Shown here one piece after another: positions 5,433 to 58,328 of a stretch of DNA of 64,000 nt (positions are counted from its first letter, which is position 1; every line of letters begins with the position of its first letter). A program made the position numbers and the translations under genes. The DNA is from Negaprion brevirostris (Eukaryota): the NCBI GenBank assembly GCA_030324005.1, contig JARDVH010000025.1, positions 118,553,169-118,617,168 of the forward strand, written 5' to 3'. Below the pieces are notes generated by a model. It ran no database searches and was not told where the DNA came from. It was given only the letters and a program-made list of their open reading frames with translations.

Positions 5433-6280
5433 GCCGAGGAAGATGTGGGCTCACTAGATGTATCACCAGCTATCTAATAGCGATAGCAACAACAGATCTA
5501 CTGGTCATCTTCTTCAGTGTAGTGATAAGCTTCATCTTAATGCAATTTACAGCTTCATGCCTCACATTGTGTCTTGTATATTTCAGAAAGTGATGACATT
5601 TATAAGCCTTGACTGTTCTGCCTGGTTAACAGTCACTTCCACTTTTGATCGCATTATTTCCATTTGTTGCCAGCAGTTTAAAATCAAATTTTCCACATTG
5701 AAAACTGCGAGGATGGTGATAGGAAGCTTGCATATGTTAAGTTTATTAACTATCATCCCCTATTACTTTGCATTTGTATCTTATGAATTATGTATGCCTA
5801 TTGGTTGTGTGAAAATGGAAGAGTGTGAAGAAAATGGCTGGCATTCATCTGGTATCTCAACCCCACTTCTGCCTTTCTTTCTGATAGTGTTGCCTCATTT
5901 TCTGACCGCCAGGTATGCTTTAGTGTCCAATAAAGCCCGGAGGAAACTCTGCCCCTCAAGGCAATGCTGAGAAACATGAAGATCCAGAAATGGAAAGTCG
6001 GAAGCAGTCTATGATTTTACTTTTCTGTATGTCTGGGAGCTTTATTTTATTGTGGCTGACAGAAGTGATCATGCTATTCTATATGAATATTTCCAACTCT
6101 GACAATGTCCTGAGTTGGGCCCACCTTCTGAAAATGGTTTAACGCGCAGGGAATATGTTAAGACTTCTCAGTTCGTCTACAAACATGTTTATTTACACTC
6201 TGATTCAAAGTAAGATCAGAGAAGAACTGAAGATGGGAATAAAGTTTCTGTTAACCTTAATTGGAAAGTTGGTTACTTAA
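5433..6280 (+). pseudogene. GPR139/GPR142-like class A GPCR pseudogene (locus A), main coding exon
   Basis: Three frames together give RGRCGLTRCITSYLIAIATTDLL / DCSAWLTVTSTFDRIISICCQ...TPLLPFFLIVL / DPEMESRKQSMILLF...SSSTNMFIYTLIQSKIREELK...VT*; frameshifts near 5530 and 5955, in-frame TAA at 6140-6142; 5' end lies in the N gap 5333-5432. Confidence 0.9.
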
Positions 6281-6530
6281 ACAAAGTTTTCCATAACTTC
6301 TTAGTCGTCCAATGCAGCAAGTGACTCAAACGGATTGTACTGACAATGTGTCTATGTGGATCCGGACAATTGATGGTATTTGAGTGGGCGGCATTATTTG
6401 CTTTGTGAATACAGCTTCTGATTTTATTCGTTAACTAATATAAGTAATGCAAAGAATTGCCCCTTTTTTGGGTGTTGGTAAATTGATCACAAAAGGCATA
6501 TTCTAGCTCTCAATTCAATTTCGCAATCTA

Positions 6531-6611
6531 TTTGTCCAATTAATCAAGTAAACCAAGCTGAATAATATTTCAACTTCAATATCCCTGGGGTAATCCCATA
6601 ACATATAAATA
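6531..6611 (+). promoter_or_regulatory. Putative proximal promoter of GPCR gene B (homeodomain site, O/E-like site, TATA box)
   Basis: CAATTAAT 6537-6544, TCCCTGGGG 6582-6590, TAATCC 6591-6596, TATAAATA 6604-6611; ATG at 6695; same spacing as upstream of genes C and E. Confidence 0.65.
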
Positions 6612-6694
6612 ATGACTTTTGGAATATATCACATCAGACTTTAATACAGAACGATAACACACAACGCAAGCTGCCAGATCTCCTCATACTGAAA

Positions 6695-6761
6695 ATGCTG
6701 GAAACGTATCATGTGGTTGCTAAAATATACTACGTGTCTCTTGCCATTATTGGTGTTCCTG
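6695..6761 (+). CDS. GPR139-like GPCR gene B, coding exon 1 (MLETYHVVAKIYYVSLAIIGVP, phase-1 donor)
   Basis: ATG at 6695, YY-x-x-L-x-x-x-G-V-P TM1 motif, donor G|GTAGGT at 6761/6762; joins in frame to 12627. Confidence 0.85.
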
Positions 6762-7324
6762 GTAGGTAAAAACTGCAGCTCTATAAATATGTTTGTGAGA
6801 CACATTCTGATTTCACTTTGTGAATTATTTTGTTGCATGGTGTTTGTAATTGACAACCATGACACAGGCACAAGAGCAAAGATATTCTTTGTTTAGTGCA
6901 CATTTCTTAAATTCTCCCTTTGAGTTAATTTTATCAATTGGTAATGAAACTAATTGTAAGTTGCAAGCTCTCAGGATGATCATGTTGCTGCATTTTGTGT
7001 ACTACCATGTGATACCCTATCAGAGTGCAACTAATGCAAACTGTCCCAAGGAAGATATTCAGGGGAGGGATGGCAAATTCACAATGACTCCAGATGATCA
7101 TCCAAACTGGAATTCCTCACTGCAAAGCTAGTATATTAAAGTCAAAATAGAATTAGGCGAATTGTGTCATGAAGCAGTATGCACTACCGATTCCATGTCA
7201 CTTTGTATTATTGGGAGTATCTGAGACTATATGTATTTAAGGTGTGCAGGTCACTAATTATTCTGTGTATTAGTGGGGCTATCTGTCAGTGTAATATTGT
7301 ACAGAGTGTGGGTCACTTGGTGTG

Positions 7325-7381
7325 GGGGGGAGGGGAGGGTGGGGGGGCCCGGGGGGGGGGGGGGGGGGGGGGGGGGGTGGG
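7325..7381. repeat. Poly-G tract
   Basis: Nearly pure G run. Confidence 0.9.
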
Positions 7382-7976
7382 CACTGAAGGCAGCGGATGC
7401 ATGAACACAACGTTCAGTTAATACTAAGAGGATCTTTGTGCCGAGTTATCTTGAGTGCAGGCCACTGACAGAAATCTTATCAGTCAATTTTATTTCAATA
7501 ACATTTCTTCTGATGATTGTTTTTTTTAAAGGAAACTGTGTGACTACATCAAATGCCTATGTGTTTCACGGAAGGAAATGAGATACAACTAGAAGTTTTG
7601 CTTTTGTTTGACAACGTTTAGTGATGAGTTTGTCAAGAGAAAAGTCTTGATACTTCTGTTTTTTCAGTTCACCTGCGACAAAGACCTGTATATAATTTAG
7701 CAGCTAGTCTTTACTGTAAGTAATTAAAATTTACCAGTGAAACATGCATTATAGATGTTTATTAATTCCTATCATTGCAATCAGGTAATTTGTTTTATTT
7801 TTCTTTGGGGTAGACGGCTCTCACAATTTGAATATGTCTTTTTTTTGCATCCTTCTTTCCCAATTTCTTAACCTTTAATGACCGATGAAGAACATAGATA
7901 CCAGCGTTCCTACTTGCGCAACTTCCCAACTTTCCCTTATTTTAGCAAATCTCTTTTCCCTCTACTCCATATTTCT

Positions 7977-7977
<1 letters not shown>

Positions 7978-8007
<30 letters not shown>
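7978..8007. repeat. (GTT)n microsatellite
   Basis: tgttgttgtcgttgttgttgttgttgttgt. Confidence 0.9.
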
Positions 8008-8299
8008 GACCTTGCTGTCCATTCCAATTGGAATGATTCATTTGTGTTGTAATTGACATAAATCATTTAGAATATCAAAATTCTGGATATCAACCGGATT
8101 AGCTGATCTAAAGTGCCTGACTGTAATGCAAGTAATTCAAGGAACTTGATGAATGCGATCTTACTTTTGGTTTGGCTGCTGACTGTTCTACGTAAGAGGC
8201 CAAACAGAGAAATTAATCGATCAGTTAGCTGAGTGTCTTTCTTTGAGGAAATGATATAATTGATTATTAAGGCGGTTAAAGATATGCATTGAGACAAAA

Positions 8300-8640
8300 T
8301 TCAAGATCATTAGACAGAGTCAGCCTGATGTTATGATGCAGATTCAATCTTCAACAATTCGTTGGAATTGTTGATAGAGTGGAGAAAAGGGAGATCATCG
8401 AGATGCAGTAATTATAAAGCTGGGCAATAGTAATTAAATGCAGGTCGGCTACAACCTTTGGCGTTGCATGGAGATCTAGTTGTTCTTCTGCATCAGCCAA
8501 ATCATATTTGTGTGCAGGTACAGCAAGTAATTAAGAAATTTGGTATCATGCCATCCTTTGTAACGAGATAAACTGACCATTGCATTGAGGTTGTTATGCT
8601 TCAAAGATACAGGACTTGGGCAAAAATAATACATTACGAA
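8300..8640 (+). mobile_element. Old CR1 LINE ORF2 fragment
   Basis: Degenerate cagagtcagc..g..tt / gtgcaggtacagcaagtaattaagaa / gttatgcttcaa..tacagg motifs of CR1 RT region. Confidence 0.5.
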
Positions 8641-9212
8641 TTAAAAAAGACAACGCATTACTGGGAGTACCTGGCAGTATTTGAATTTATACTTGAAAAT
8701 TACGTACATCCTTCTGAGATCTGATCATGAGTACGGGCTAGGAAAAGGTCTAATCCTCAGGGTGTTTGGACGTGAGGTTCATCCGAGCCAAAGACGTGCC
8801 CTGGATCCTGATGGGATCTAACTTTGATGCCAAAGAATCAGAAAATTCTCCAGGGCGTAGGCAGTTCAGGCAGCCCCTGTGGGGAGAATAGCAGTGTTCA
8901 TGTTTCAAGTCTGAAAGAGAGATAATCAAAGCCGAGCTTGCGTCAAATCTCAGGGTTTCTCATCCTTTAGTGGGAATCCAGATTCTGGCAGGTGTTTTGG
9001 TCCCAGGGGGAGTCTGATTCTTGGTAAATTATAGCAGTATGGTAACCTGTACTTGGCAATGGGTCATTTCCCATAGTGTGTGATGTTTAAGCGAATAAGA
9101 GTTAGGAAAAGGGTAGTGCATTTGATCACTCAAGATCAGCTCGCAATGTAAACCGATGGTGGTTGATCATTTACCTCTTTTTATTCTTCCAGCACTCTCA
9201 CCATCAACTCTT

Positions 9213-9536
9213 GCGGTGGCATGGTGACAGAATGGTCACCACTGCAGTCCCACAGTGCCACGGATCCGGGTTTGATTCCCGGCTTAGGTCACAGTCTGTG
9301 TGATGTCTCCACATTCACGCCATGGCTGTGTGGATTTCCCCTGGGTGCTCCCTTTTCCTCCCACAGTCCTCAGATGTGGGGGTTAGTTGCACTGGCCATG
9401 CTAAATTGTCCCTTAGTGCTAGGGGACAAGATAGGGTAAATGCTTGTGGTTATGGAGATATGCCTGGGTTAGATTGTGGTCGGTGTAGACTCGATGTAGA
9501 GAATGGCCTCCTTCTGCACTGTCGGTATTCTATGAT
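9213..9536 (+). mobile_element. tRNA-derived HE1/V-SINE-type SINE, near full length
   Basis: tRNA-like head with B-box gggtttgattccc, core gtggatttcc...ttcctcccacagtcc, CR1-derived tail aatggcctccttctgcactgt. Confidence 0.85.
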
Positions 9537-10479: not shown

Positions 10480-10960
10480 GCTGATCTTTGCTATAGCTCA
10501 GTATGAAGAGACTGCAGTACGAGAATAAAATCTTTATTCCTGATCTCTGATTTACGTTTGTTAACCAATTCACAATCAATTGGAGCCTATATTCTCCAAT
10601 CCCATGTACTAAAGTCTCTTGTTACAATCCATTCCAGGACCTCATTCAAAGCATGTAAAATCTTCCACGTCCACTATTTTAATTTCATATATTCTCAAAT
10701 AATGTGCTCAGAAACCCCAATGTGTTTGTCAAAAATGGTTTCCTTTCCATCGTCATGTTGACTCTGTCAAACCATATCATTATTTTCAAAGTGTCCGGTT
10801 ATCAATGCTTTATAATATATAGAAATACGTTCTCTCCTACTGATTCTATAATAGCAGATTTCTTTTTCAATCTTCTCTCTACTGTGTCCATAGCATACAA
10901 ACTAATGGGACTAAATGCACATTTGTTTATTCGCCCCCATGGCTTCCATCCTAGGTCCTA
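10480..10960 (-). mobile_element. Old CR1 LINE fragment, reverse orientation
   Basis: Degenerate ttaaccaattc.caatc / tcccatgt / ctcagaaacccc..tg..tttgtcaaa..tg.tttcc motifs of reverse CR1 ORF2. Confidence 0.45.
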
Positions 10961-10964
10961 AATA

Positions 10965-12452: not shown

Positions 12453-12626
12453 ATCGTCGTCTGGTATTAGGTATGGAGGAAAGACTAACACTTACATGCC
12501 TTGCACCACAACACCCCTCTCCACCGCTTACCATTTTGCTCTGAAATCCGCTCCTTACAGTCAATTTCAGACGAGTAGAATATGTGGTATTTAATTCTCT
12601 AAATGTTCCCCTCCTCTTTCTTACAG

Positions 12627-13540
12627 TTAATTTAATTGGAATTGCCATCCTGTGCCGAGGAAAGTGCGGTCTCTCTCTCTGTACAACATGCTACCTGGTG
12701 GCCATGGCAACTGCGGATCTTCTCCTCATTATTACTGACGTCATATTAAATCAGATCAAATATTATTATTTCCCATTATGCTTCCTTCACATGTATGCAG
12801 TATGTAGCGTGCAAGGTGTCCTGGTCTGCGTTGCCAGAGACTGTTCTGTCTGGTTCACTGTCACTTTCTCCTTTGATCGATTTGTTGCAATTTGTTGCCA
12901 GAAGTTGAGATCCCAATATTGCACCGGCAAAACGGCGGCTGTGGTCCTAGCAACAACGGGAATTCTCCTCTGTCTAAAGAACATCCCCTGGTACTTTACA
13001 TTTCGACCATATGCAATAATCAACAATGTACTGTGGTTCTGTTATACAAGGGTAAACACCTTAACTGATCCCGGATGGCTAGCTTTTGGCTGGTTTGAAA
13101 AAATTTTAACGCCGCTATTCCCATTCATTTTAGTTCTGCTGCTCAACGCTCTGACAGTGAGACATGTTTTAGTGAGTAGCCACGTCCGGAAGGGCCTGAG
13201 GGGTCAGAATAGAGGAAAAGCGAGAGACCCAGAGATGGAGAACAGGAGAAAGTCTATGATTTTACTTTTTGCAATATGTGGCACCTTCATAGTTCTGTGG
13301 TTCGTAAATGTTATATTCTTCTTATATTCTAAAGTTAGAGGCATCGTTCATTCCACAGATTCGGAAGTTGTGTTTCAATATGTAGGATGGATGCTGCGGA
13401 ATTTAAGTTGCTGCACAAATACATTTATTTATGGAGTGACTCAGTCTAAGTTCAGAGAGCAGCTCAAGCAGGCTGTGAAATATCTGCTAACACCAATTGT
13501 CCGACTGATTAATAAATGCTTATCGATATCAAAGAATTAA
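12627..13540 (+). CDS. GPR139-like class A GPCR gene B, coding exon 2 (326 aa spliced protein)
   Basis: Polypyrimidine tract and ttacAG acceptor at 12626; open frame VNLIGIAILCRGKCGLS..AMATADLL..DCSVWFTVTFSFDRFVAICCQK..TPLFPF..DPEMENRRKSMILLF..SCCTNTFIYGVTQSKFRE; seven hydrophobic segments when exon 1 is added. Confidence 0.93.
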
Positions 13541-17472: not shown

Positions 17473-18184
17473 ACTAGAAGTCAGTCAAAAGAATGTTAAG
17501 AAAAAAGTAATATATGATCTTAATATCTACTCCTCAGAAAATGTGTTCAGTGTTTGGAAAGATAATTCAGGAAAACACGTAGGAATATTGTAGCATCAGC
17601 TATTCAGCACGAGATGCACGTGGAAGACAGCATTTGAAGAACGGTAATATGTTTGATCAACGACAATTAGCAATCGTGGATACACCTCAGGAGTAGATGC
17701 ATTTAACATTGACTTTCAACTTGACATACGAGACTGCCAAACAAACTGATGACCCATGTCAATGCCGGTACGGGATAAAGAACAGAATGAATCTTATGAT
17801 TAATACGAACGCAAGTAGCAAGTATGCTCATGACATAAAAGTGGGCATGGGGTAGGTCACAATGCACTGGACAGGAAACTATACGCTCACCAGTCGCAAA
17901 AGAATGGCAATTAGGGATGAGGATTAGAACTGCTAATCTAAGAGCATGTTTTATAACTCCCCCCCGCAATGCGCCCTAAATGCAATTCATTAATGCGTAC
18001 TACAATCCAAAAATATCCTAAGTACTGAATTTTGATTAACTTCGCCATATATCTCCACTTAAAAAAAAAACCTTGCCCGCTCAAGATTATTGAATCTTAA
18101 AGCAAATGCTTCGAACACTACCAATAAAACTCAGGTCAGACGCTACTGAAAGCCTTCTCTTCCAGGGCAAAACAGTTTAACTTT

Positions 18185-18474
18185 ATTTTATTGGCGTCAC
18201 ATGTAGCCTTACGTTAACACGGCAATGAAGTTACTGTGAAAATCCCCTAGTTGCCACCCTCCAGCGTCTGTTCGGATACACTGAGGTAGAATTTAGCATG
18301 GTTAATTCACCTAACCAGCGCATCTTTCGGAGCTTGGGAGGAAACCGGATCACTGGAGGACACCCACGCAGATACGGGAGAGCATGCAGTCTCTGCACAG
18401 ACAGTGACCCAAGCTGGGAATCAAACCTGGTGCAGTGAGATAGTAACATTAGCCACTGTGCCACTGTGCTGCCC
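18185..18474 (-). mobile_element. HE1-type SINE, variant with ggggattttcacagtaacttcattgc tail
   Basis: Reverse head agccactgtgccactgtgctgccc, core gggaggaaaccgga, tail caatgaagttactgtgaaaatcccctag. Confidence 0.85.
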
Positions 18475-18883: not shown

Positions 18884-19390
18884 CATAGAATCCCTAAAGT
18901 GCAGAGGAGATGATTTGGTGCGTCGAATCTGCATCGACTCTCCGACAGAGCATCTTACCGTCACCCGTAAACACACGCATTTACCCAGCTATTGCCCCGA
19001 ACATATTTGGACACTAAGGGGCAACTCACCATGGCCAAAGCACTTAATGACGTCTTTGGACACGAAGAGGCAATTTAGCACGGTTAATACACCTAACCAC
19101 ATCTTTGCACATTAAGGAGCAATTTAGCATGGCCAATGCATTTAACCACATCTTTGACACTAAGTGACAATTTGTGATGGCTAATCTACCTAATCTCCAC
19201 ATTTATGGACAGTAAGGGGCAATTTAGAATGGTCAATCCACCTAGCCACATTTAAAAGGTCATCCTCCTCATCTGCACATCTTTGGACACTAAGGGGCAA
19301 TTTAGCATGGTGGATCCTCGTAACCTTTATATCTTTGGGCAGTAAGGGACAACTTAACAAGGCAAATCCAACCAACCGGCACATCTTTGT
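18884..19390 (-). repeat. SINE tail followed by a tandem array (~7 units of ~49 bp) amplified from the SINE core
   Basis: Unit catctttggacactaaggggcaatttagcatggccaatccacctaacc repeated from ~19001 to ~19390. Confidence 0.85.
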
Positions 19391-19497: not shown

Positions 19498-20417
19498 CTA
19501 GACTGGTTTTGCTTTACTGTCGAACAATCTCCTGATCAATGTCCATGGAGAGTTCAGCACCTTCTTTAGCTCTTCCCTGAATTTCCTCTGGGTCGTTGCA
19601 TAAATACATGTGTTTGTGCAGGAATTCACAAGTTTTATTATAGCTCCGGTTTCAGTGGCGATATATGCAGGCGTTGTGCGGTCCCCTCGGTAGTAAGTTG
19701 TGTTTGTCAGTCTTGTGGTTAAAAAGCTCACATTGGCTGTCAGCCACAGCAATATAAAACTGCCCGAGATAGTGAAGAGTAAAATGATGGATTTCCTTCT
19801 GCTCTCCATCTCGGAATCACTCCGATTCTCAGTGTTGTGACCCCGGAGTCCTCTACGGGCTCTGCTGGCCATCAAAACATGTCTGACTGTCAAAGAATTA
19901 AACAGGACAATGACAGTAAACGGGAGCCAAAGGCGCCAGATGGCATGAAACCAGAAGCTCACTGCACCTAAAGGTGATGAAAAAAATGCCAGATTTGCCC
20001 GGCAGCCCCACCATAATTTGTTAATGATCTGTTCAGACTCATAGGCAAAAAATACGGGGATGTTCTTTATAAGGATTAAGATATAGATCAGTGTTATAAC
20101 CAGAGCCGCAGTTCTCTGGGTGCAATATTTCGTTTTAAATTTCTGGGAGCAGATGATTATAAAACGGTCAAATGTGAAGGAGACGGTGAACCAGACGGAC
20201 AAGTCGAGGGTAACAACAGTCGTGTACAGAATGAACTTGCACACGGGAGTGTGGGACAGGAAAGAAAATGGGAAATGGTAACTGAAAATATAATACATCA
20301 TTACATTGATGATCAAGACCAATAGATCTGCCGATGCCATGTTTACCATATAGACAGTGATACATTTGGAGAGGCCACAGTTTCCTCGGAAAAGGATCAC
20401 AATCGTCATTAGGTTTG
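19498..20417 (-). CDS. GPR139-like class A GPCR gene C, coding exon 2 (329 aa spliced protein)
   Basis: Acceptor tttataacAG at 20418; ANLMTIVILFRGNCGLSKC..NMASADLL..DLSVWFTVSFTFDRFIIICSQK..DSEMESRRKSIILLF..NSCTNTCIYATTQRKFRE; uninterrupted frame to TAG. Confidence 0.93.
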
Positions 20418-20573: not shown

Positions 20574-20840
20574 TTTAGTTTATTAGACTCACAAGTAGGC
20601 TTACATTAACAATGCCACACTCCAGCTCCTGCTTGATTACACTGAGGCAGTGTTTAGCACGGCCAATGTACCTAACCAGCACGTCTTTCAGACTGTGGGA
20701 TGAAACCAGAGCACCCGGAAGAAACCCACGCAGACACGGGGAGAATATGCAGACCTCACACAGATAGTCACCCAAGCCGGGAATCGAACCCGTGTCCCTG
20801 GCACTGTGAGGTACCAGTGCCACTCCTGGGAAACCTGCCG
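20574..20840 (-). mobile_element. HE1-type SINE inside the intron of gene C
   Basis: agcacccggaagaaacccacgcagacacggggagaa, gggaatcgaaccc B-box in reverse. Confidence 0.85.
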
Positions 20841-21119: not shown

Positions 21120-21189
21120 CGGGAACACCAAAAGATACGAGAATCGGGTAGTAAATCTCCCTTATCTGCAGAATAGTAAGTTGTCCCAT
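21120..21189 (-). CDS. GPR139-like GPCR gene C, coding exon 1 (MGQLTILQIREIYYPILVSFGVP, phase-1 donor)
   Basis: ATG at 21189, YYP-x-L..GVP motif, donor G|GTGAGT at 21120/21119; 702-nt intron; in frame with exon 2. Confidence 0.9.
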
Positions 21190-21272: not shown

Positions 21273-21349
21273 TATTTTTATGTACAAAGTAATCCTCCAG
21301 GGAGCAGTCAGGTTTCATTAGTATACATTAGTTACATCCATTTAACACA
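21273..21349 (-). promoter_or_regulatory. Putative proximal promoter of gene C
   Basis: Sense strand: TAACTAATG (21334-21326), TAATGA (21320-21315), CTCCCTGGAGGA (O/E-like, T at 21303), CATAAAAATA (21282-21273); 93 nt to ATG. Confidence 0.65.
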
Positions 21350-21539: not shown

Positions 21540-21830
21540 ACACAGTGGCACAGCGGTTAGCACTTCTGCCTCACGGTACGAGAGATCTGAGTTCAATTCC
21601 CAGCTTGAGTCACTGTATGCGCAGAGTCAGCACGTTCCCCCGCATCTGTGTGGGTTTCCTCCGGATGCTCCGGCTTCTTCCCACAGTCCAAGCGATGTAT
21701 TGTTTAGGTGCATTGGCCAGGCTAAATTCTCCTTCAGTGTGCCTGAACAGGCGCTGAAGTGTGGTTCTTGGGGATTTTCACACTAACTTCAATGCAGTGT
21801 TAATTTAAGCTCACTCGTAATACTGTAACA
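21540..21830 (+). mobile_element. HE1-type SINE
   Basis: cagtggcacagcggttagcact head, gtgggtttcctccggatgctccgg core, ggggattttcacac tail. Confidence 0.85.
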
Positions 21831-21869
21831 TAATATGATGGAATTTTTTTGTTAGGGTGGATAGTTATG

Positions 21870-22830: not shown

Positions 22831-24369
22831 TTGATTTTGATTTGACTTATTATTGTCACGTGCATTAGTATATAGTGAAAAGTATTCTTTCTTGTGCATT
22901 ATAAAGGCAAAGCATACCGTCCATAGAGAAAGAAACAAGAGAGTGCAGAAAGTAGCGTTATGGCCATAGCTCGGGAAAGGTCAACTTAATGCGAGGTTAG
23001 TGCATTCATAAATATGTTGGCAGCAGGGAAGAAACTGTTCTTGAGTCAGTTGGTATGTGACCTCAGACTTCTGTGTTTTTCCTGATGGAAGAAGGTGGAA
23101 GGGAGAATGTCCAAGATGCCTGGGATCCTTAATTATGCTGGCTGCTTTGCCAAGGCAGCGGGAAGTGTAGACAGAGTTAATGCTTGGGATGCTGGCTTGC
23201 ATGATGGATTAGATTAAATTCACAACCTTTTGTTGTTTCTTGCAGTCTTGGGCAGAACAGCAGTCATACCAAGTTGAGATACAACCAGATAGAATGCTTC
23301 CTATGGTGCATCTGTGAAATTTGGTGAGATTCATAGTTTACATGCCAAATTTCCTTAGTCTTCTGAGAAAGTAGAGGTATTGGTGGGATTTTTTAACCAT
23401 AGTGTCGGCATGGGAGGACTCGGACAGGTTGTTGGTGATCTGGACACCGAAAAGCTTGACGCGCTTGACCCTTTCTACATTGTCCCCATTGATGAAGACA
23501 GGGGCATTTTCTCCTCTACGCTTCCTGAAGTCAATGACGATCTTCTTCATTTTGCTGACATTAAGGGAGGAATTATTATTCTTGCACCAGTTCATCAGAT
23601 TCCCTATCTCATTCTTGTACTCTGTCTTGTCATTGTTGGAGATCCGACCCACTACAGAGGTGTCATCAGCAAACTTGAAAATTGGATTGGAAGGGGATTT
23701 GGCCGCAGAGTCATAGGTATATAAGGAGTATGGTAGGGGGCTGAGAACACAGCCTTGTGGGGCACCAGTGTTGAGGATGACTGTGGAGGAAGTGTTGTTG
23801 TCTATCCTTCCTGATTGTGGTCTGAGAGTTCGGAAGTTCAGGATCCAGCTGCAGAGGGAGGAGACAAAGTCTAGGCCACAGATGTTAAAGATGAGTTTCA
23901 TAGGAATATTGGTGTTGAAGGCCGAGCTGTAGTCAATAAATAGGAGTCTGACATAGGTGTCTTTGTTATCTAGGTGTTCCAGGGTTGAGTGGAGGGCCAG
24001 GAAAATGGCGTCTGCTGTGCACCTGTTGCGGCTGTAGGCAAACCGTAGTGGATCCAGACAATCAGATAATTGATTCATGCCATGACTAACCTTTCAAAGC
24101 ACTTCACAATGATGGATGTCAGAGCCACCGGCTGATAGTCATCAAGGCACAATGCTTGGCTTTTCTTTGGTACCAGGATGATGGTCATCTTATTGAAGCA
24201 GATAGGACCTCAGATTGTTATAAAGAGAGATCAAAGATGTCTGTGAATACCCCCACCAGCTGATCCGCACAGGATCTAAGTGCACGTCCAGGTATTCAAT
24301 CCAGGCCAGTTGTTTTCCCTGGGTTGACCTTCAAGAAAGCTGCTTTGACATCTGCAATAGTCACCTCAG
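22830..24369 (-). mobile_element. Rex1/Babar-clade non-LTR retrotransposon, RT region and 3' end
   Basis: ORF 23338-24078: [51 protein letters not shown]; (aaatc)n-like 3' tail at ~22830. Confidence 0.9.
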
Positions 24370-24469
24370 NNNNNNNNNNNNNNNNNNNNNNNNNNNNNNN
24401 NNNNNNNNNNNNNNNNNNNNNNNNNNNNNNNNNNNNNNNNNNNNNNNNNNNNNNNNNNNNNNNNNNNNN

Positions 24470-25140
24470 TCAGACTTCTGTATCTTTTCCCGATGGAAGA
24501 AGGTGGAAGAGAATATGTCTGGGATGCGTGGTGTCCTTAATTGTGCTAGCTGCTTTGCTGAGTCAGTGGTAATTGAGTCAATGGATGGAAGGATGGTTTT
24601 GGTGATGGATTGTGCTACATTATTGACATTTTGGAGTTTCTTGCGGTCTTGGGCAGACTAAGAGCCGTAACAAACTGTGATGCATCCAGAAAGATTGCTT
24701 TCAATGGCTCATCTGGAAAAGTTGGTGAGAGTAGTAGCTGTTGTGCCAATTTTCCTTAGTCTCCTGAGGGTGTAGAGGCTTTCTTATCTATAGTGTCGGC
24801 ATGTCTGGGGCCAGGAAAGATTGTGTGTGATCTGGGCACATAAACGCTTGAAGCTTTCGACCGTTTTACTTCATCTCTGTTAATGTAGACAGAGACATGT
24901 TCTCCACTGTCCTTCTGAGCACGATGACAACCTCCTTCGTTTTGTTGACATTGAAAGACAGAAAATTTCCATCGCACCAGTTCACCAGATTCTCTATCTT
25001 CTTTTCCTGTATTCTGTCTCTTCGTTGTCTGAGATCCGACCCACAATTGTGGTGTCATCAGCAAACTTGAAAATCGGGGCAAAGGAAAATTTGGCCACAC
25101 GTGTATAAGGAGTATAGTAAAGGGCTGTGGGTCCAGCCTC
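24470..25140 (-). mobile_element. Second, diverged Rex1/Babar fragment
   Basis: Collinear with 23064-23760 (gatggaagaaggtggaag, gtgtcatcagcaaacttgaaaat) but with many substitutions and indels. Confidence 0.85.
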
Positions 25141-25829: not shown

Positions 25830-27000
25830 AGTGTAGCAACTGCATGACAGGGGTAGTATAAAATGGATCAATGTGAGGTTATCCGCATTGGTAGCAATAA
25901 TAAGATCACAGATTATCATTTATATGGATGAAAATTGAGAGAGATGGAAACTCAGTGAGACATGATGTTATTGTGCATCAGTCACTAGAAGTAAGCACGG
26001 AGGTACAGCAGGCAGGAAAGAAGGCAAATGGCATTTCAGCCTTCATAGCGAAAGGATTTGAGACGTTTTACTGCAATCTCATACAGCATTGGTGAGGCCA
26101 CACCTGAAGTATTGTGCACAGTTTTCAGGTTCTTATCTGAGAATCGATGTTCTTGCCATAGAAGGAGTGCAGCTAATGTTTATCAGACTGATTACTGCCC
26201 AGTGTCGCTGCGCTGAGAGGTGGCAAGTGGAGTTCAATGCGGAAAAGTGTGAAGTGAATCACTTTGGATGGAGTAACAGGAATAAAGTGCACTGGGCTAA
26301 TGGTAAGATATTTGGTAGTGTGGATGAGCAGAGAAATCTCGCTGTCCATGTGCAAAGATCCCTGAAAGTTGGCGCTCAGGTTGATAGGGTTGTTAAGAAG
26401 GCATGTTAGCTTTTATTGGTAGAGGGATTGAGTTTCGGAACCGTGAGGTCATGTTGCACTGTACAAAGCTCTGGTGCTGCGTTCTTGGAGTGTTGTGTAC
26501 AGTTCTGGTCGCCACATTTTCAGAACGATGTGGAAGCATTGGAAAGGGTGCAGAGAAGAATTACCAGGATGTTGCTGGGTATGGTGGCAAGGTCTGATGA
26601 GGAAAGGCTGACGGACTTGAGGCTGATTTTGTTAGAGAGAAGGTTAAGAGCTGACTTAATAGAGGCATATAAGACTATAAGAGGATTAGATACGGAGGAC
26701 AATGAGAGCCTGTTTCCTCAGATGGAGATGGCTAGCACAAGGGCACATAGCTTGAAATGGAGGGGTGATAGGTATAGGATGTCAGAGGCACGGTCTTTAC
26801 TCAGAGTAGTAAGGGTGTAGAATGCCTTGCCTGCAACTGTAGTGGACTCACCAACTTTGAGGGCATTAAAATGGTCATTGGATAAACATATGGAGGATAT
26901 TGGAGTACTGTAGGTTAGATGGGCTTTAGATTGTTTTCACAGGTCGATGCAACATGGAGGGCCGAAGGGCCGGTACTGCACTGTAAAGTTCTATGTTCTA
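25830..27000 (+). mobile_element. Two nested/adjacent CR1 LINE 3' fragments (junction ~26200)
   Basis: VRPHLKYCAQF then restart at WAERWQVEFNAEKCEV..LECCVQFWSP..LERVQRRITRM..RLRADLIEAYK; 3' tail gggccgaagggcc...ttctatgttcta. Confidence 0.85.
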
Positions 27001-32886: not shown

Positions 32887-33737
32887 CTAACCTGCTGACG
32901 ACTGTCACCCTGAAACCTGAAGAATGTGGTATTTCCAAATATGTCGTTTGTTTCTTCGTGGCGATGGCAATGGCGGATCCATTGATCATTGTATTCGACC
33001 TGATATTGAGACCTATGCCGATTGTTTATAAGAGGGAGTTTCTGGTTCTGGACTTCACTGATGTGTAAAGTATCCACTGTTGTTCTCTTTTATACAGTGG
33101 CTGACTGTTCTACTTCGTTCACCCTGACTTTCATCCACGACATTTGTTCCCAGAAATTAATAAATAAGTGCTGCATCAAAAGAAGTTGGGTCTAATTTTG
33201 GAAAGAACGACTGTGCTGAGCATTAAAAAAAATCTGATACTTAATGTTCACAGATCGCTATTGTCTGCAAAGCCTCCCCTGGTTTGTTATGTAAAGTTTA
33301 CTGTTCAGAAATCTATGGCCTATGTAACAATCGAGTTCCTTCAGCACATTCTAACCCCTTGTGTTCCATTTGTATTGATGCTGCTTCTCAGTGTTTTCAC
33401 GGTCAGACATATTTTAATGACCAACAGAGTCCAGAGGTGACACTTGATTCTTAGCCGCCTCAGTAATTTTACTCTTTTCTTTTATCTCGGCGAACTTCAT
33501 TCTGTTATGGGCAATGTTAAGGTTCTATTCTATTTGGAAGGGGATGTTAAACGTGGGATACTATTCTGCTTGCCTACATGGATTTGCTGTAGAATTGGGC
33601 TTCTTGTTGTAACTGAAGCATTGAGACAAGAATACCCCATTTATACCATAATCCACAGCAATCTCCGAGAGCAATTGAAAATTCCTCAAATATCCTGTTA
33701 CTTGTATCATTCAATTATTTCAATGACGAGTAATTAA
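32887..33737 (+). pseudogene. Heavily decayed GPR139-like GPCR pseudogene (locus D), exon 2
   Basis: TNLLTTVTLKPEECGISKYVVCFFVAMAMADPLIIVFDLILRPMPIVY; ADCS.SFTLTF; TIEFLQHILTPCVPFVLMLLLSVFTVRHILMTNRVQR; SNLREQLK; multiple stops, frameshifts, deletions; acceptor ttacAG changed to ttacAA. Confidence 0.88.
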
Positions 33738-41359: not shown

Positions 41360-42261
41360 TCAGCCCCTAATGCATTGTAGAACTTTAGTAATGGGGTATT
41401 TGAGCATACTCTTCAAATGCTGTCTGAATTTATTCTGTGTCACTGCGTAAATAACTGTGTTTGTACAACAACTCAGAAGCTGCATCATGAAGGCCAAGTC
41501 ATAAACGAAATCATCTATCCAGATAGTCTCAAACCCCAACCAATCCATCCGGCTGTGTATCGAACAAACCATTATCAAAGACCATAACATGAAGAAATTT
41601 CCTGAGATAACAAATAGTAAAATGATGGATTTTCTTCGGCTTTCCATCTCTTGATCCCTGGTGCTCTCCCCACTGATGTGAGCTTGGAGCCTCCTGCGCG
41701 CTCTGCTGTTCACAACAATGTGTCGAACGGTGAAAATATTCAACAGCAAAATCAGGAGAAATGCAACTCCTGGGGTTATAATGTGATGGAGAAACTCGAT
41801 TCCTGTCCACACAGGCGAATGCAGAACATCGAATGAATAATCACAAAACAAGGGGTCATTCCACAGCATATACCCGCCATTTAACATAAAGTACCAGAAC
41901 AAGTTCTTTAGACAGCTCAGCACAGAGACGGTTCCCAGAACGATGACCACGGNNNNNNNNNNNNNNNNNNNNNNNNNNNNNNNNNNNNNNNNNNTGGCCA
42001 CACACCTATCAAAGGTGAAGGCAACGGTAAACCAGACAGAACAGTCAGCGGCTGCATAAAGCAGCACAGCATGGATATTACATACGCTGCTGGTTAGCAG
42101 GAACTGAAAACTCTCTTCATATACAATCGGAATGTGTCTCAAAATCACGTCGAGTATAATGACCAGTAGATCTGCTCCTGCCATCGCTATCAGGTAATGA
42201 GTGACACATTTGGAGAGGCCACAGTTTTTGCTCTTGAGGATCACAATCGTGACTATGTTCA
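41360..42261 (-). CDS. GPR139-like class A GPCR gene E, coding exon 2 (42-nt N gap at 41953-41994)
   Basis: Acceptor ttccttccactcctcacAG at 42262; VNIVTIVILKSKNCGLSKC..AMAGADLL..DCSVWFTVAFTFDRCVA..DQEMESRRKSIILLF..SCCTNTVIYAVTQNKFRQ; gap length matches the missing ICL2 length of paralogues. Confidence 0.88.
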
Positions 42262-42956: not shown

Positions 42957-43250
42957 GGCAGCAAGGTAGCACAATGGTTAGCAATGCTGTTTCATAGCAC
43001 CAGGGACGAAGATTCCATTCCCAGCTTGGATCATGTCCTGTCTGTGTAGAATTTGCACGTTCTCCCCATTCAACTGGGTTTCCTCCGGATACTCCGGATT
43101 CCTCTCACCGTCTGACAGATGTGCTGGTTATGCACATTGGCCATGTTAAATTCTCCCTCATTGTACCCGAACCGGCGCCGGAGTGTGGGGACAGGGGAAT
43201 TTTCACATTGACCTTATTACCGTGTAAGGCTACGTGTGATTACAATGACA
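42957..43250 (+). mobile_element. HE1-type SINE
   Basis: ggcagcaaggtagcacaatggttagca head; gtacccgaaccggcgccggagtgtgg tail. Confidence 0.85.
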
Positions 43251-50379: not shown

Positions 50380-51770
50380 CGCAGAACACACACCCCCAAT
50401 CTCGTACGCAAACTGACTTTTTCTCTCACACTCAATGACCTGTCTCATACACACGGGCATCACTCCCTCAAAAATATGCAGTTACCTCGATGTCTCACAC
50501 AAACTCAAGCTTCTTGGCATAAAATCATCACTTTTTCACACACACGTTTATTCACACACGCACACCCGTCCTAACACAATCAGAAACGCACTAACAAACT
50601 ACATAGAAATATATACACGCATACACACACACGGACGCATCTCTCTCTCACACACACGCATCTCTCACACACAACGTACTCATCCTGACATGCAAAAACT
50701 CATTATCACACACATTGTGACACACACACGCGCATTGATCCTCACATTGACATACTCTTCCTCACACGCACTTATCTTCATCAACACACCCATTCTCACA
50801 CATACAAACATTCATCCTCTCACATGCATTCACTCATCCTCACAAACAAACCTTCATCCTCACACAGGCTCATCATCAGCACTCATCCAAAACATGCGTA
50901 GAAACATCCTCACACACACGTACACACTTATCCTCACAGAGAAATTCTTCCACACATGCTAACACTCATCCACACACGCACATTCACCCACAGTCATCCT
51001 GTCATTTTCCCTCTTTCATACCGACAGTCTTCCTCGCATGCACACATGCACTCATCGTCAAAATCACACAGCACACCAATGCACATTTTCAACTGTGCAT
51101 GTTTATCCCCATATGCACAAACTCCCGATTAGACACTTTCAGAAGCACAAAACCACACATGTTTTCTCTCTCAAACATACACACTTACAGTCATATGCAA
51201 ACACATATATCTTCACACAGGTACGCTCATCCCTGCAAGTACACAGACAATCCTGTCTCATGCAAGTGCACTTAGCGTCACACAAAAACTCTCATTCTCT
51301 CTCTCTCTCTCTCACACACACACTCATCGACACGCACTCATCCTCACACTTACACACACATCGTCACACACAGGCACATTCATCCTCACTGATTAAACCC
51401 TCCTCTCATACAAACACCCATCGTTACAGAGACAAACACTCATCCATCTGTGCTTGCAGATATACAATCGTCCTCAATCTTTCTCCATCAACACACACAC
51501 ACACACACACGCACACACACAACTTCCTCACACTCACGTTCATTTATCATCTAAGAATCTCAAAGTCGCAATCATTGTTCTGAGACACAACCTCATCCAC
51601 ACACAGTGCATTCATCTTCATAAACATTCATCTCATACATGCATACTCATCCTCTCACACAGGCATACACACACACATTATCACACAGACACACACCCTC
51701 AGATTGTCTCGCTCGCACACATTCCATCCTCACACAGAAATCACGTTCAGACACATACACAAATACTAAA
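50380..51770. repeat. Long CA-rich low-complexity tract (ctcatcctcacaca-like units)
   Basis: Degenerate (CA)n and catcctcaca repeats; source of the spurious His/Thr-rich ORFs. Confidence 0.85.
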
Positions 51771-51771
51771 C

Positions 51772-52021
51772 CGGTAGACAGAGGGGAACCTGTGGATGTG
51801 GTGTTTCTGCGGTAGACAGAGGGGAACCGGTGGATGTGGGGTTTCTCGATTTTCAAAAGGTGTTTGACAAGGTGCTGCACAAAAGGTTGCTTCAGAAGGA
51901 TAAGGGGCATGGAGTTGGGGGTAAGGTATTAGCGTGGATAGAGGATTGGTTGTCTAATAGGAGACAGAGAGTTGGTATCAATGGGTGCTATTCTGATTGG
52001 CAGTTGGTGACTAGTGGAGTG
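51772..52021 (+). mobile_element. CR1 LINE RT fragment (runs into N gap), 38-bp tandem duplication at its 5' end
   Basis: VDRGEPVDVGFLDFQKVFDKVLHKRLL..WIEDWLSNRRQRVGING..TSGVLQGSVL. Confidence 0.9.
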
Positions 52022-53679
52022 CTGCAGGGATCGGTGCTGGGNNNNNNNNNNNNNNNNNNNNNNNNNNNNNNNNNNNNNNNNNNNNNNNNNNNNNNNNNNN
52101 NNNNNNNNNNNNNNNNNNNNNNNNNNNNNNNNNNNNNNNNNCTTATTCTGGCGCATAACCATCTTCCAAAACACACGACCAATTCTCTCACTCTCACACA
52201 TAAAAAATATATCCTCACTCACAAACACACAAAGGAAGGGGAGTGGGGTGGGGTGTGGGGACGACGTGAAGTAAAAACGGGTGAGGGGAAATGGGGAGGG
52301 AGAAAGGTGTTTGGATAAGGGTGAAGGAAGTGGTTGGATGTTACAGGCAACCTTAATCTTCCCTGCATACATCAAACGCACAAAAATAACATGTGTAAAA
52401 CTTCAAACAAAAAGCACAATGTTCAAGCTGTGGTGGAAATTGACTCATGATTTTCAATCTGCTTTTGATCCTGTAATGCCTATCAAAGCAATTGTTCACG
52501 TCACCTTGCAGGAGACGTGTATCTGACGTCTGAAGGGACAGACGTTCCGAAAGCATTTAAACTAGCCATGTTTCATAAGAATCAATGGCACACTCAGGGA
52601 GCCTTAAAATTGAGATAAACGTTATCGAAGACTTGCATGCAATACCTTAAGTAATACACTTCCATGAAATATTTGAATCAGCGAAATGACACGAGGAGAA
52701 ATATTGCGTTAGGGACACTCTTAAAATATTAACTCAAGTGACGGAAGTTTTGGTACCATTGTTGGTCAGTGCTTCAAATAACGGCAGGTTGCATAACAGT
52801 ACATAAGAGGCACACAACAGTGCATGTGGCTCTCTTTCAGCGCACATGTGCATGTACCAGGACTTCAGTGTTGCACAACCGACGTAAGGTAGCATTCCAA
52901 TCACAAGTAGTAGACCAGAGGCACGCACACATGGAAACACACACATGCGTCCTGAAACGCACACAACGGTACACACACACACAGACGCACACACTCGTTC
53001 ACAAACACACACACATAGTGATCTTCATAGCACCGCAGTTCCGAGAGTTGTTCAAGAATATGCTGAATTGTATCTTCATTCTATCAGAGCAAAGAATGTA
53101 ACAACCCAACAGGAGAAAGTCTGCATGTGGTCGAGTGATGTGATTCTATCTTTCTTTACAAGCAAAGAGTTCTGTGGATTTGATGAGAGCATGTGAAGTG
53201 ATCAGCTCTGCCATTTTATTGTTGTTATCAATAGGTTGTTACATGGAATAGTCATGCCATTTGGGGCATCCAGGAAAATAATGGCTGTGGTGAAAGTCCT
53301 CTTTCCCCTTTAGAACAAATGCAAGTTTTAGAGCCAAGTTTTCATGTTGAGAAATGCCCTTCTCAATTCATGGTTGGCGAGCAAATGTCTTAACAATCAC
53401 ATGTTTACCTGTCTTGCCTGTACTGCATATTCCAATTGTTGCCAATAATGGTACAGACCACGTTGCTCCAGAATGTTCCAAGTCTTTGTAATTTGCCAAG
53501 CCACCTGCATCTTGTGGAATAGATTAAGCAGAGAAAATTCCTTTGACGTCAAGTTTATCAGAACGACTTGAATGTTTGTGTTGGGGATAGGATTAGTAGG
53601 TTTGAGAATGGCAGAAGGACTGGCCGGGTCGTTAGAGTGAGGTTGTGTGTCTTGAGCTACTAGAAGACATACGCAATGG

Positions 53680-54485: not shown

Positions 54486-54764
54486 TTCCTCAGCTACTTA
54501 TCTGCCTGTAAACTGCTTGAGACCCTTCACAGCAAGCAATCAAATTGTCTGTTCTGTTCCAGAAGCTTTCCTATGTAGATTGCAAATGCCAACTGACAAT
54601 GCCGCGTCACCAAAGTTTTAAGTGAGTACTAAAAATTTATCTGGAATTCTGCCGAGAAAGATTTCCACCATATTATCCCCAAATCCACTCAATGTCACCT
54701 CCTCCAGACATTTCAGGTGCGGTAGCTGTGCTGGGGATGAGGAAGCTTTTCACATCATAACAAT

Positions 54765-55062
54765 TTTTTGTTAGTAGTGTTACAAGTATGCTTACACTAA
54801 CACTGCAATGAAGTTACTCTGATAATGCTACAGTCGGCACACTCTGGTGCCTGTTTGGATAAACGGAGGGATAATTTAGCATGGCCACATCTAACAAGCA
54901 CAACTTTTGAACTGTGGGGGGAAGCCGGAACACCCGGAGGAAACCCACGCAAACATGGGGGAAACGTACAAACTCCACACTGATAGTGATCCAAGCTGTG
55001 AATCTAACCCGGGTCCCTGGTGCTGTGAGGCAGCAGTGCTTACCGCTGTGCCACGGTGCCGC
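54765..55062 (-). mobile_element. HE1-type SINE
   Basis: cacccggaggaaacccacgca, cccgggtccctggtgctgtgaggcagcagtgct..ctgtgccac. Confidence 0.85.
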
Positions 55063-57902
55063 CACACTGAATGTTCCTTTCCAACGAATGTCTGGAGACA
55101 TTTGCAATTTTATTGCGTGTATTTCATTGAGAGCAGTTCCATTTCATATTTTTTTCTCTGCTCTATGTTCTTTTCCCAGGGATGCACAGCGTGTTATGGT
55201 TCAACTGCTGCACTACCCTTAACTCTGTGAAAGGAGTTTTTTGGTCTGCCACCGGACTTCTGGCCACCCACTGAAAAGAGCTGGACTAGCAACTTCCAGG
55301 ATCCTGGATTACCTGATGAGGGGCGAATTCAGGCGAAGCACAGAGGCCGCAGAGTGGCAGCTCAGAACGTTCACCAGTTGGTGTTCAAGCGCAACATAGT
55401 CAGGGCCTGGAAACTTTGTCGAGGCCCTCAGGCTGCAGACCCAGTATATGATGTATCTTGTAAATGTTAACTTGTTACAACTATATTGTGCGAACTTCAA
55501 GTGGATTCTGCATGATGATAGGTTGAATGTTCCACTCTTCTGCAATGGGCAATTTGAAATGATGGTAATGTAATATTGCAAATTTAATGAATAATGTATT
55601 AATTTCGTAACAAGAAAAAAATGAAACGGGATCTGGGGCGCTTTTGTCCATAAAGATTAGAAAATTCATTAGGGTTTNNNNNNNNNNNNNNNNNNNNNNN
55701 NNNNNNNNNNNNNNNNNNNNNNNNNNNTGATTGAAGAAAAGCACAGTAGAATGGCTTGAATCGATTTGTTTGTAATGCACAGTTTTGGAGTAATGGGCAA
55801 AGCCAAGTAGCACACTGGCGAAAATGATCGGAAATCTTGAGATATCGGTACCTGGAATTCACTGCCTATAAATATGATGAAAGTAAATTCACGAATAACT
55901 TTCAAAAGATAATATTGCAAATAGCTAAAATGTAAACTCGTAACAGTCGGTCGAAGGGAAGTGGTAACACAGGGACAAATTACATAGCTCTTGCAAAGAG
56001 GCAGTGCGGACAAAATGGGTTAAGTATTCTTATTATTTTCGTCCTCAGTCTCTGATTCAAAATTGAGGGCAGGGAGTGAAACTCGAGATACAGTCAATGA
56101 GAGAGCCAAAGAGCCAGAGAGAGGGAAACATAAATTACAAGACTGATAAGTCGCCACAAGCTCAAATATTTGCATTTCATCCAAATCTGAGGCTGATAAT
56201 GAGTCACAATCATTACGCAATGAATTGTGGAGTGCCAGGCATACTGTAACTTGGACAGAGCGGGAAGCATAGTTCATGGTAGATTTGGACAAGGCTAATT
56301 GATATTTTCACAGTTCACATGACAGTACTAGCGGAAATAGCTGCACTACAAGATTTGCTACCTTTCCTGCTTCAGATTCTACCTCAATCCATTTGCTGCA
56401 GTGGAAGCTTCGACTGAGGTCAGGAGAAACACGTAGGCTACAATGTATACCCAGACTTCTGTCCCCATCGGTAAGCACCTCATTCTCGGGGGCACAGAAG
56501 GACTATTTCATCAATCTGTGTTCAAACTGATTAATAGACTTGCTGAGCATCTGCCCGGTGTGAGCGAAGGTGACTTCCTCCATTATGAAGCAGCTGGATT
56601 CTTTATCAGGATAACGCATTTGCATTCCTGGTACTGCTAACCCTCAGTGTCCATTCTTTTTGTCCATTAGCAATGAAATGATGCTATTGTGTACATATAT
56701 GTTTTGCAGTCAGCATTTGGGCACTCAGGTGCAAAAGATTGACCAGAAATTCAATCTGTCTCCGTTGCAAGTGACAATCAGAACCTCTCTATCAATATAA
56801 CTTCTGTCACTAAGGGGGAAGAGCCTCTGAGCTGGAGTATTTGGGGGTAGTCCAAAGGGCAGATTGATATACTAAATTGATATACTGAAATGCATAGATC
56901 ATCTCTTACTTGAATAGTTGAATGCTATGTTTGTTAAAATGTTTACCTCGTTTTTTAAAAAAAAATTCAAATAGATGATTTATGTCCAAGGGGATGTTGT
57001 CATATGTCTCAGGTGAAACTAAAGGGAAACTTGGCATCCAAGTTGAAGGGATGTTGAACTCTGCAGAACAGGCCCTAAAAGACATTTATCTACAACCTCT
57101 CACGGTTACAGGCTTCCAGGATATATTCATTGATGCCTGGTTGCTGTAATATGAAACAAAATGATATCTTCTGTGTGGTCAAACACAAGATTCTGCTTAA
57201 TGCATTGAGAGTTTATTTTTTAGTTCCTGAATCTTTCTGCATTTACAGGCTGGCCCACGTTTCATTTCGACAATCCTCCTAGCTGCATAAACTCATTCCA
57301 TTTCATGCTTTATGTACTTGGTAACATCTGTGACCTTTACTTTCGGGAGCCTAAGATCAAAGCCACCTAGAGGCACAGAGTGAAAAACGAAACCTGAAAA
57401 AAGGGGTCAGGTAAATATTTACAGTGAGTAGATCTCAGGGACAAATAACATTGTGGTGAGCTAAATAAAAGTCCGAGGTCATGGAGAGTTTGGCGATTAA
57501 CACGATCTGGACTCAGAAATCAGGCCTGAGTTCACAGCATTTGTGAACATTCCAGTTTGCAGAGGTGGTGAACAGACTGGCTCAGTTTCAGAGATTGGCC
57601 AGATAAAGGTGTAGGATTAACAGTTAGGTTACAGAGACCGTGGCTTTCCAATAATCTAATTGATAAGAGAAGTAATGCACTGGATGATGATTCACAGACA
57701 GAAAAGCACCAGGAAAATCACCAGAAACAACACCAAGCAAGTGCAGTGTGAAAATAAAAGTCTAACACAATTAGTAATATTCAATCGAGTTAATGTGGAC
57801 TCAACAAAATCAAGGAGAGTAGCAACAGAGCAAAGCAATTGACAGTAACATAATGCATTAAAACATACTTTATAAAATTCAGAACTTGATGAAGAGACTT
57901 AC

Positions 57903-58104
57903 CAGGCGCAGCAACAATAGCCAAGGTTGGATAGTAAAAAAACTGTATCGCTAACAATGCATAATAGACCCGATCAGCAAATGTTGTCCACCGATCATCT
58001 GCAGAAATTTTGTTAATTACCGAATACAAACTTCTGTCCATCCTTGTAGCGTTCCAACTTATTTTTCTCAAATTTCGATTCATCATTCTATAATTCCAAT
58101 CCAT
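57903..58104 (-). CDS. GPR139-like GPCR coding exon 1 with long N-terminus (67 aa), most likely exon 1 of gene E
   Basis: MDWNYRM...ALLAIQFFYYPTLAIVAAP, donor G|GTAAGT at 57903/57902, phase 1, compatible with acceptor at 42262 (15.6-kb intron, 367 aa); N gaps in between could hide another exon 2. Confidence 0.8.
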
Positions 58105-58250
58105 TGTTCACAGATAGTTTTATAATATTCCAATCTATTGCTCTCAATACTGATCAATCCTCTTCCCCCTTCTAAAGCTGCTGAAGCTCGCCAGTGCCTG
58201 AGTTGATGCTCACATGGGCTTTATGGGGCAACAATTAGGAACAAGTCCCT

Positions 58251-58328
58251 TATTCATAGAAAAATTAACCCCCCAGTGATACAATTAAGACCCGTTGAGA
58301 CTGGCATTAGTTATAGTCACTGAACAAA
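58251..58328 (-). promoter_or_regulatory. Putative proximal promoter of gene E
   Basis: Sense strand: TAACTAATG (58313-58305), TAATTG (58287-58282), TCACTGGGGGG (O/E-like, T at 58279), TATGAATA (58258-58251); alignable with 21273-21349. Confidence 0.6.

Follow-up and report, generated by a model that had tools for sequence, protein, structure and literature searches.

GPR139, a G-protein-coupled receptor (GPCR) of class A encoded by a two-exon gene, is reported to bind L-Trp and L-Phe through E3.32, F3.33, H5x43, W6.48, R6.51 and N7x38, and its true orthologues are 70% identical between human and zebrafish (PMC7318219). Surveys without sharks place further unnamed orphans beside GPR139 and GPR142, described as GPR210A/B (PMC6504862) and 'Orphan 139-like' (PMC5207463), and the wider clade includes the MIP/sex-peptide, FMRFamide, proctolin and myosuppressin receptors (PMC8514136). 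Olfactory organs are large in sharks, but canonical receptors are very few: the catshark is listed with 8 odorant receptor (OR), 3 ORA, 3 TAAR and 32 V2R genes (PMC11979771), a small repertoire that has been explained as sensitivity traded for discrimination (PMC10116579), and surveys covered only the four known families. Here we analyse a 64-kb stretch of the genome of the shark Negaprion brevirostris (contig JARDVH010000025.1, positions 118,553,169 to 118,617,168; hereafter the window), a piece of AT-rich vertebrate scaffold that is interrupted by 12 N gaps and carries five receptor loci. Our analysis shows the window to be part of a cluster belonging to a large family of elasmobranch class A GPCRs. 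This family goes back to a single ancient GPR139-like gene, which still exists in single copy, and its members diversified through birth and death. The family is apparently undescribed so far; we found no description of this expansion in the literature on GPR139/GPR142, GPR210, shark GPCR expansion and shark chemoreception, a search outside which most subscription papers and supplements lay.

The original prediction, made from the DNA letters alone, had described five paralogous seven-transmembrane loci in the window, and tblastn, a six-frame search with a 43-member family protein profile and nhmmer agreed with it in number, order and strand: A (+), B (+), C (−), D (+) and E (−). With a DNA model built from these same five loci, nhmmer gave E-values of 1e-182 or better for all of them and 0.015 for the next match. 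Weak profile matches at about 2.1–2.3 kb (−), 16.0–16.3 kb (+) and 22.6–22.9 kb (−) were considered as a sixth copy and rejected, with no support from blastp or nhmmer. The long open reading frames (ORFs) of B, C and E matched Pfam 7tm_1 with 64, 79 and 47 bits (cut-off 30.5) and, used as tblastn queries, revealed the broken copies A and D.

B, C and E share one gene structure. A short coding exon 1 ends in the middle of transmembrane helix 1 (TM1) at a phase-1 GT donor, and a large exon 2 follows behind a pyrimidine-rich AG acceptor; the GT/AG intron interrupts the same TM1 codon in all three, and the spliced ORFs have no internal stop. Exon 1 of gene B (6695..6761, +) comprises 22 codons plus 1 nt before its GT donor and encodes a 22-residue leader shared with the N-termini of B-type homologues, and exon 2 (12627..13540, +) runs from the second half of TM1 through the stop, giving an ORF of 326 amino acids across an intron of 5,865 nt. 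Gene C is encoded on the minus strand by exon 1 (21120..21189), which matches C-type N-termini, and exon 2 (19498..20417), with an intron of 702 nt and an ORF of 329 amino acids; an AlphaFold2 model of its exon 2 shows seven helices and helix 8 at a mean predicted local distance difference test score of 90.4. Gene E, also on the minus strand, has a longer exon 1 (57903..58086) that matches E-type N-termini (E 3e-20) and includes an N-glycosylation sequon, an intron of about 15.6 kb and an exon 2 (41360..42261) that keeps its frame across a 42-N gap (41953–41994), for an ORF of 361 amino acids. The length of this gap is that predicted from homologues; 15 codons lie within it, so the intactness of E is only partly established. 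We note that the E-type N-terminus (58086–58040 in the window; P0184, P0199 and P0205 among homologues) carries a variable number of 14-residue units in tandem, every one bearing an N-glycosylation sequon; homologues have from one to about five of them, and gene E has one clear copy.

The other two loci are pseudogenes, in line with the original prediction that two of the five are dead. Locus A is an exon 2 remnant (5433..6280, +), the 5′ end of which lies inside an N gap (5333–5432); it carries two frameshifts, at about 5530–5575 and 5950–5965, present against all four references, and an in-frame stop near 6140, so placed by two of the four. Locus D (32887..33730, +), of the E-type subfamily, has 7 frameshifts, at least three stops found against each of three references, and an acceptor that reads CAA in place of CAG. 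The number of lesions in A and D makes assembly error an unlikely cause. No exon 1 of A or D was found in the window, where subfamily exon-1 profiles detected only those of B, C and E; a 'WNIPTM' match at 30.5 kb and others were judged to be chance. The claim that all five loci have the same gene structure is therefore borne out for B, C and E only. Pairwise, the loci share 47–60% DNA identity (nhmmer) and 38–44% protein identity (tblastn), and on these values they are old paralogues rather than recent tandem copies of each other.

Homologue searches placed these loci in a large family. A search with C passed 1,804 of 2,707 candidates at E 1e-3 and one with E passed 1,731 of 2,282, totals that may include non-members and are not family counts, as only the best 120 matches of each were viewed. 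These two lists share no entries, and of the 240 matches, 239 carry names and one is unnamed; the named ones come from 13 elasmobranchs, comprising 12 shark species and one sawfish, and nearly all bear the label 'probable GPR139'; no chimaera was among the best 120 of either search. Entries per species among the 240 numbered at least 85 for horn shark, 50 for sevengill, 35 for sawshark and 17 each for small-spotted catshark and whale shark, each entry being a cluster at 90% identity, with isoforms or haplotypes possible. The alternative named beside the original prediction, a small family with stable one-to-one orthologues, was checked against these results and fails. For 169 of 226 full-length named proteins (the 239 minus 13 dropped for length or coverage) the nearest neighbour came from the same species, and in a fast tree some clades consisted of one species only, with 44 and 16 sequences in those of the horn shark, 23 and 11 in those of the sevengill and 10 and 8 in those of the sawshark. 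Together with the two dead loci out of five, these clades bear out the predicted lineage-specific expansion with birth and death.

The genomic arrangement of the family appears to combine clusters and dispersal. Among the best 120 matches, all 12 C-type matches of the catshark lie on records of one same length, and the E-type matches of the horn shark lie on records of at least 35 different lengths, counted by eye. Six database models (P0121, P0122, P0241, P0253, P0257 and P0119) span between one and a half and two receptor units, apparently because adjacent genes of a tandem cluster were wrongly joined. The canonical exon-1 motif is absent from 71 of the 240 models, a hint that transcripts from the tissues usually sampled give them little support. 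In its clusters, its birth-and-death evolution, its pseudogenes and its short coding structure the family resembles the vertebrate chemoreceptor families (OR, TAAR, V1R and V2R), to none of which it has family-level homology. All 43 members scanned matched Pfam 7tm_1 (four also Srx, weakly) and none of the 43 matched an OR, V1R or V2R model, and the aminergic, TAAR-type aspartate at 3.32 was outside the four commonest residues at that position in 56 non-redundant members.

To which receptors the family is related was seen in an unindexed search with B, which returned 569 matches, 109 of them below 1e-30, and showed a break in identity: family members at 38% or more were followed by a few full-length proteins at 23–30%. 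Among the latter was a coelacanth protein (P0364), whose relatives make up a conserved 'GPR139-like' clade. Among the best 120 of 145 matches, each named species contributes one or two rows to it; three sharks are represented, along with sturgeon, bowfin, bichir, teleosts, amphibians, turtles and squamates, and mammals and birds are absent. P0364 reaches only 70 bits with human GPR139 and is therefore distinct from it, given how similar true GPR139 orthologues remain between human and zebrafish. Two entries in this clade, from the zebra shark and a frog, are annotated as TMEM183A isoforms, which suggests a conserved neighbour gene.

We scored homologues and solved receptors with one family profile, on the same alignment and E-value scale. 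Full-length members reached 293–664 bits, an unnamed receptor of 339 amino acids (P0353) 255 bits, the 116 sequences of the single-copy GPR139-like clade 142–227, three proteins from unnamed records that we take to be amphioxus-like 141–155, and two invertebrate-like proteins 121–127. Human GPR139 was the best of the solved receptors at 80.2 bits; the next scored 63.4, and chemoattractant receptors 60 or less. A quick-mode maximum-likelihood tree (LG+G4) was built from 89 rows after 8 representatives that were fused or partial had been omitted; true GPR139 is absent from it, and profile scores take its place. In this tree, Shimodaira–Hasegawa-like approximate likelihood ratio test (SH-aLRT) support was 98 for the family with P0353, 99 for the single-copy clade and 83 for their union against the amphioxus-like rows. 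The tree places the single-copy GPR139-like gene as the sister clade of the elasmobranch family. P0353, which has K6.51 and Q5.42, is basal to the shark family and stands midway from the sister gene to the expanded receptors; P0313 is a further basal representative. B, C and E fall into three separate subfamilies (support 97, 98 and 100), of which the C subfamily includes the sawfish and is therefore older than the shark–ray split. Recent tandem duplication from one parent is thus ruled out for B, C and E, and only D groups with E.

Family and sister gene have the TM3 S-V-W stretch, C3.25 and N5.58 in common, and mis-started gene models break at the same TM1 position, which suggests a shared intron. 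They differ in that the family loop motifs match none of 115 sister sequences and in that sharks keep their own copy of the sister gene outside the expanded family. Probable candidates for the sister gene in the earlier surveys are a GPR210A/B set (PMC6504862) and the row called 'Orphan 139-like' (PMC5207463). Nematode Srw/Srx-type expansions have a chemosensory role. Atlas neighbours of the family are FMRFamide-receptor-like, some with Srw/Srx Pfam labels, and the nematode and other invertebrate expansions belong to the same parent clade (PMC8514136); the elasmobranch expansion, in contrast, is independent of them and nests with the vertebrate sister gene and the amphioxus-like sequences.

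The descent of the loci from GPR139 or GPR142, and with it the pharmacology that the original prediction had attached to them, did not hold up. Beyond its profile score, human GPR139 resembles the family in W6.48, found in 264 of 267 family members, and H5.42, found in 185, and the two coding exons of B, C and E would be compatible with its two-exon gene; GPR139 lacks C3.25 in alignments, and the family is multi-copy. With C as the query, phmmer gave GPR139 33 bits, level with AT2R and CCR1, and Foldseek ranked GPR139 second at about 21% identity in the structural alignment, in a search that returned peptide receptors and gave no discrimination among class A receptors. Low identity, copy number, a separate branch and the loss of the pocket all speak against orthology of B, C and E to GPR139/142. 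Of the other residues through which GPR139 binds Trp and Phe, the 267 sequences have E3.32 in none, F3.33 in 33, R6.51 in 3 and N7.39 in 5, and no member has more than three of the six; the sister gene has R6.51 in 115 of 115 sequences and few of the others. With these residues lost, the predicted L-Trp/L-Phe ligands are without structural support, and the family probably does not bind these amino acids as GPR139 does. By profile and tree, the family descends from the separate single-copy GPR139-like branch.

We next compared conservation across the receptor. N1.50, D2.50, C3.25, D/E-R3.50, P5.50, N7.49 and Y7.53 are present in 91–100% of the 56 non-redundant members, with C3.25, the cysteine that links TM3 to extracellular loop 2, in 95%. 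The class A residues W4.50, P6.50 and P7.50 are not kept (4.50 is S, C, T or G; 6.50 is T in 61% and P in 12%; 7.50 is T in 80% and P in 11%); the same three positions are also divergent in the sister gene, which makes the departure typical of the clade and not a sign of decay. For the ligand pocket we used a standard class A list of 30 positions, rather than positions measured on the model. Mean entropy in the family was 2.58 bits at these positions, 1.99 at 64 other positions in the outer transmembrane halves and 1.23 at 115 inner positions, compared with 0.76, 1.12 and 0.98 bits, respectively, in 47 sister sequences, and the rank shift of pocket positions between family and sister among outer-half positions had a permutation p of 1.5e-4.

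This variation follows subfamilies. Cross-species pairs at 70–80% transmembrane identity had a pocket identity of 0.77 compared with 0.68 at other outer positions, and pairs at 40–50% had 0.21 compared with 0.32. B, C and E share 17–30% of pocket positions with one another and 54–61% of inner positions, and two inner loop motifs are found in 249 and 227 of the 267 family sequences. In the sister gene seven pocket positions are invariant in 47 sequences, including E2.61, Y3.33, N3.37, Q5.42, R6.51 and Q6.55, which points to one fixed ligand. The family does not keep this invariant pocket and forms a clade of its own, and we rejected a placement inside the single-copy clade. Odorant receptors likewise set a variable pocket on a conserved G-protein face. 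Pockets that are alike within and different between subfamilies, on a common G-protein-facing surface, are the pattern of a multi-ligand sensor repertoire, and the original prediction of a chemoreceptor-type family is upheld to that extent.

As a pattern in the sequences, then, the repertoire is evident; we infer from it that each subfamily would have its own ligands, small molecules or peptides, and that all would signal through the same G protein. Most likely, in our view, external ligands act on chemosensory cells, a reading whose probability we put at roughly 55%. Such cells could be microvillous neurons of the olfactory epithelium, other sensory cells or solitary chemosensory cells, with transcription from promoters combining O/E (Olf-1/Ebf), homeodomain and TATA sites and signalling through Go/Gq, phospholipase C and TRPC2; catshark olfactory neurons are reported to be all Go- and TRPC2-positive (PMC10116579). 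More tentatively, and as a possibility that we would not yet call probable, the family may be a fifth family of olfactory receptors, specific to elasmobranchs and recruited out of the GPR139-like orphans, of which each genome would have anywhere from tens of members to over 100, expressed in olfactory neurons from O/E–homeodomain promoters.

O/E and homeodomain sites mark olfactory receptor promoters, and we therefore searched for them. A conserved O/E site is reported in 78% of 314 mouse OR promoters, in which TATA boxes are also enriched (PMC3247239), V1R promoters hold O/E-like motifs as well (PMC3247230), and Lhx2 and Ebf co-bind in olfactory regulatory DNA (PMC5608512). Upstream of gene B, an O/E-like decamer lies 113 nt before the ATG and is followed 22 nt on by a TATA-like hexamer (6582..6609, +). 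Gene B starts only about 410 nt past the stop codon of pseudogene A, a spacer so short that the whole proximal promoter is probably confined to 6280–6695. Gene C has an O/E-like site 114 nt before its ATG with a TATA-like box 21 nt on (21277..21303, −) and a homeodomain-type TAATGA core immediately upstream, and gene E has a degenerate site 193 nt before its ATG, again with a TATA-like box 21 nt on (58253..58279, −) and a TAATTG core 2 nt upstream; TAAT cores are close to the O/E-like site in all three promoters. On both strands of the 64 kb the composite occurs five times, three of which precede the ATGs of B, C and E, for a pattern partly tuned to these three genes, its 21–22-nt spacing and TATA element chosen after viewing the data. 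Looser fixed patterns have per-region backgrounds of 6.8% (O/E with TATA) and 2.5% (with TAAT added). The three upstream regions also share the 8-mer TAACTAAT (p 0.026) and no 9-mer, and a common ungapped 30-nt block was rejected as not significant, being equalled by 2 of 60 random triplets. The sites before B, C and E resemble odorant-receptor promoters, weakly, and offer a lead rather than proof.

Several observations weigh against a chemosensory assignment. Given the same pattern freedom, random triplets equal the rarity of our best composite in 11 of 400 cases (p about 0.03). Of 400 random triplets, 44 have the O/E-like site by itself, at up to two mismatches, in each of their three regions, which is not significant as a promoter signal. 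Compared with the published core, the B and C sites have one mismatch, a level reached in 9% of windows, and the E site has two, a level reached in 56%. Ebf acts in B cells too and is a general neuronal factor, and immune and nociceptor GPCR families likewise show expansion with pocket diversification. In the catshark, ORs and several V2Rs are reported to be expressed in organs such as the spleen, the ampullae, the stomach, the testis and the rectal gland (PMC11979771); the organ thus cannot be read from a chemoreceptor-like mode of evolution. The same source gives no GPCR among the 50 genes most specific to catshark brain and olfactory tissue, which is uninformative because V2Rs are absent from these 50 as well.

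In one rival reading the receptors are immune or barrier sensors, carried by leukocytes, B cells or epithelia of the mucosa, for peptides and metabolites of microbial or damage-related origin, in the manner of formyl-peptide or Mas-related receptors. It would predict birth and death with variable pockets equally well, an O/E-like motif would fit B cells, the differentiation of which requires Ebf, and two catshark ORs are reported as spleen-specific (PMC11979771). We nevertheless consider it unlikely: the closest solved relative is GPR139 and not a chemoattractant receptor, by the profile scores given above, and TAAT beside the O/E-like site in three of three promoters is the olfactory type of pairing (PMC5608512), itself a weak indication.

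Rather less likely in our view are receptors for endogenous peptides or metabolites, whether neuroendocrine, gut, gonadal or pheromone-like and reproductive, that subfunctionalized after duplication. The peptide receptors of the wider clade (PMC8514136), the FMRFamide-receptor-like Atlas neighbours, the conserved C3.25, the peptide receptors returned by the fold search and the persistence of old subfamilies across shark orders and a sawfish are all in keeping with this explanation. Receptors of this kind keep their pockets, however, as the sister gene does, and dozens of species-specific copies with frequent pseudogenes do not suit a fixed set of ligands.

The remainder of the window is rich in repeats. 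LINE (long interspersed element) reverse-transcriptase fragments lie at 23063–25127, 26410–26820 and 51770–52040, with Pfam RVT_1 at 23341–24093, and two copies (23063–23743 and 24470–25127) are 72% identical to each other. A SINE (short interspersed element)-like repeat of 200–300 nt is present in six copies that are 71–75% identical (9212–9413, 18179–18473, 20616–20820, 21541–21836, 42957–43228 and 54761–55066), of which one sits within the intron of gene C and another directly upstream of the promoter of that gene. Just beyond the stop of gene C there is a tandem array with a 49-nt unit (19001–19251), and a long CA-rich low-complexity stretch within the E intron (50400–53000) gives rise to spurious His/Thr-rich ORFs. 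An inverted repeat at 62581–63229, with 122-nt arms of 94% identity and an internal direct duplication, adjoins a 4-N gap and is either a young miniature inverted-repeat transposable element or an assembly artefact. An Rfam scan gave no matches.

A last rival, in which segmental duplication multiplied the genes in a largely neutral way on the repeat-rich chromosomes of sharks and single copies do little, could draw on the dead copies, the LINE and SINE fragments between genes, the scatter of horn shark E-type copies over many record lengths and the models without the canonical exon-1 motif, yet it is improbable given open frames and near-invariant core residues at 40–50% overall identity, variation concentrated in the pocket rather than spread evenly, and pockets conserved between close cross-species pairs.

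The label 'probable GPR139' thus merges three things: true GPR139, a single-copy sister gene and the elasmobranch expansion. Should the expansion be immune or endocrine instead of chemosensory, it would still be a very large uncharacterized expansion of vertebrate GPCRs. If it is olfactory, it would rival or exceed the V2Rs and overturn the picture of a very small, V2R-only smell repertoire in sharks. The family may be an overlooked part of shark chemical sensing, mislabelled as the brain receptor GPR139.

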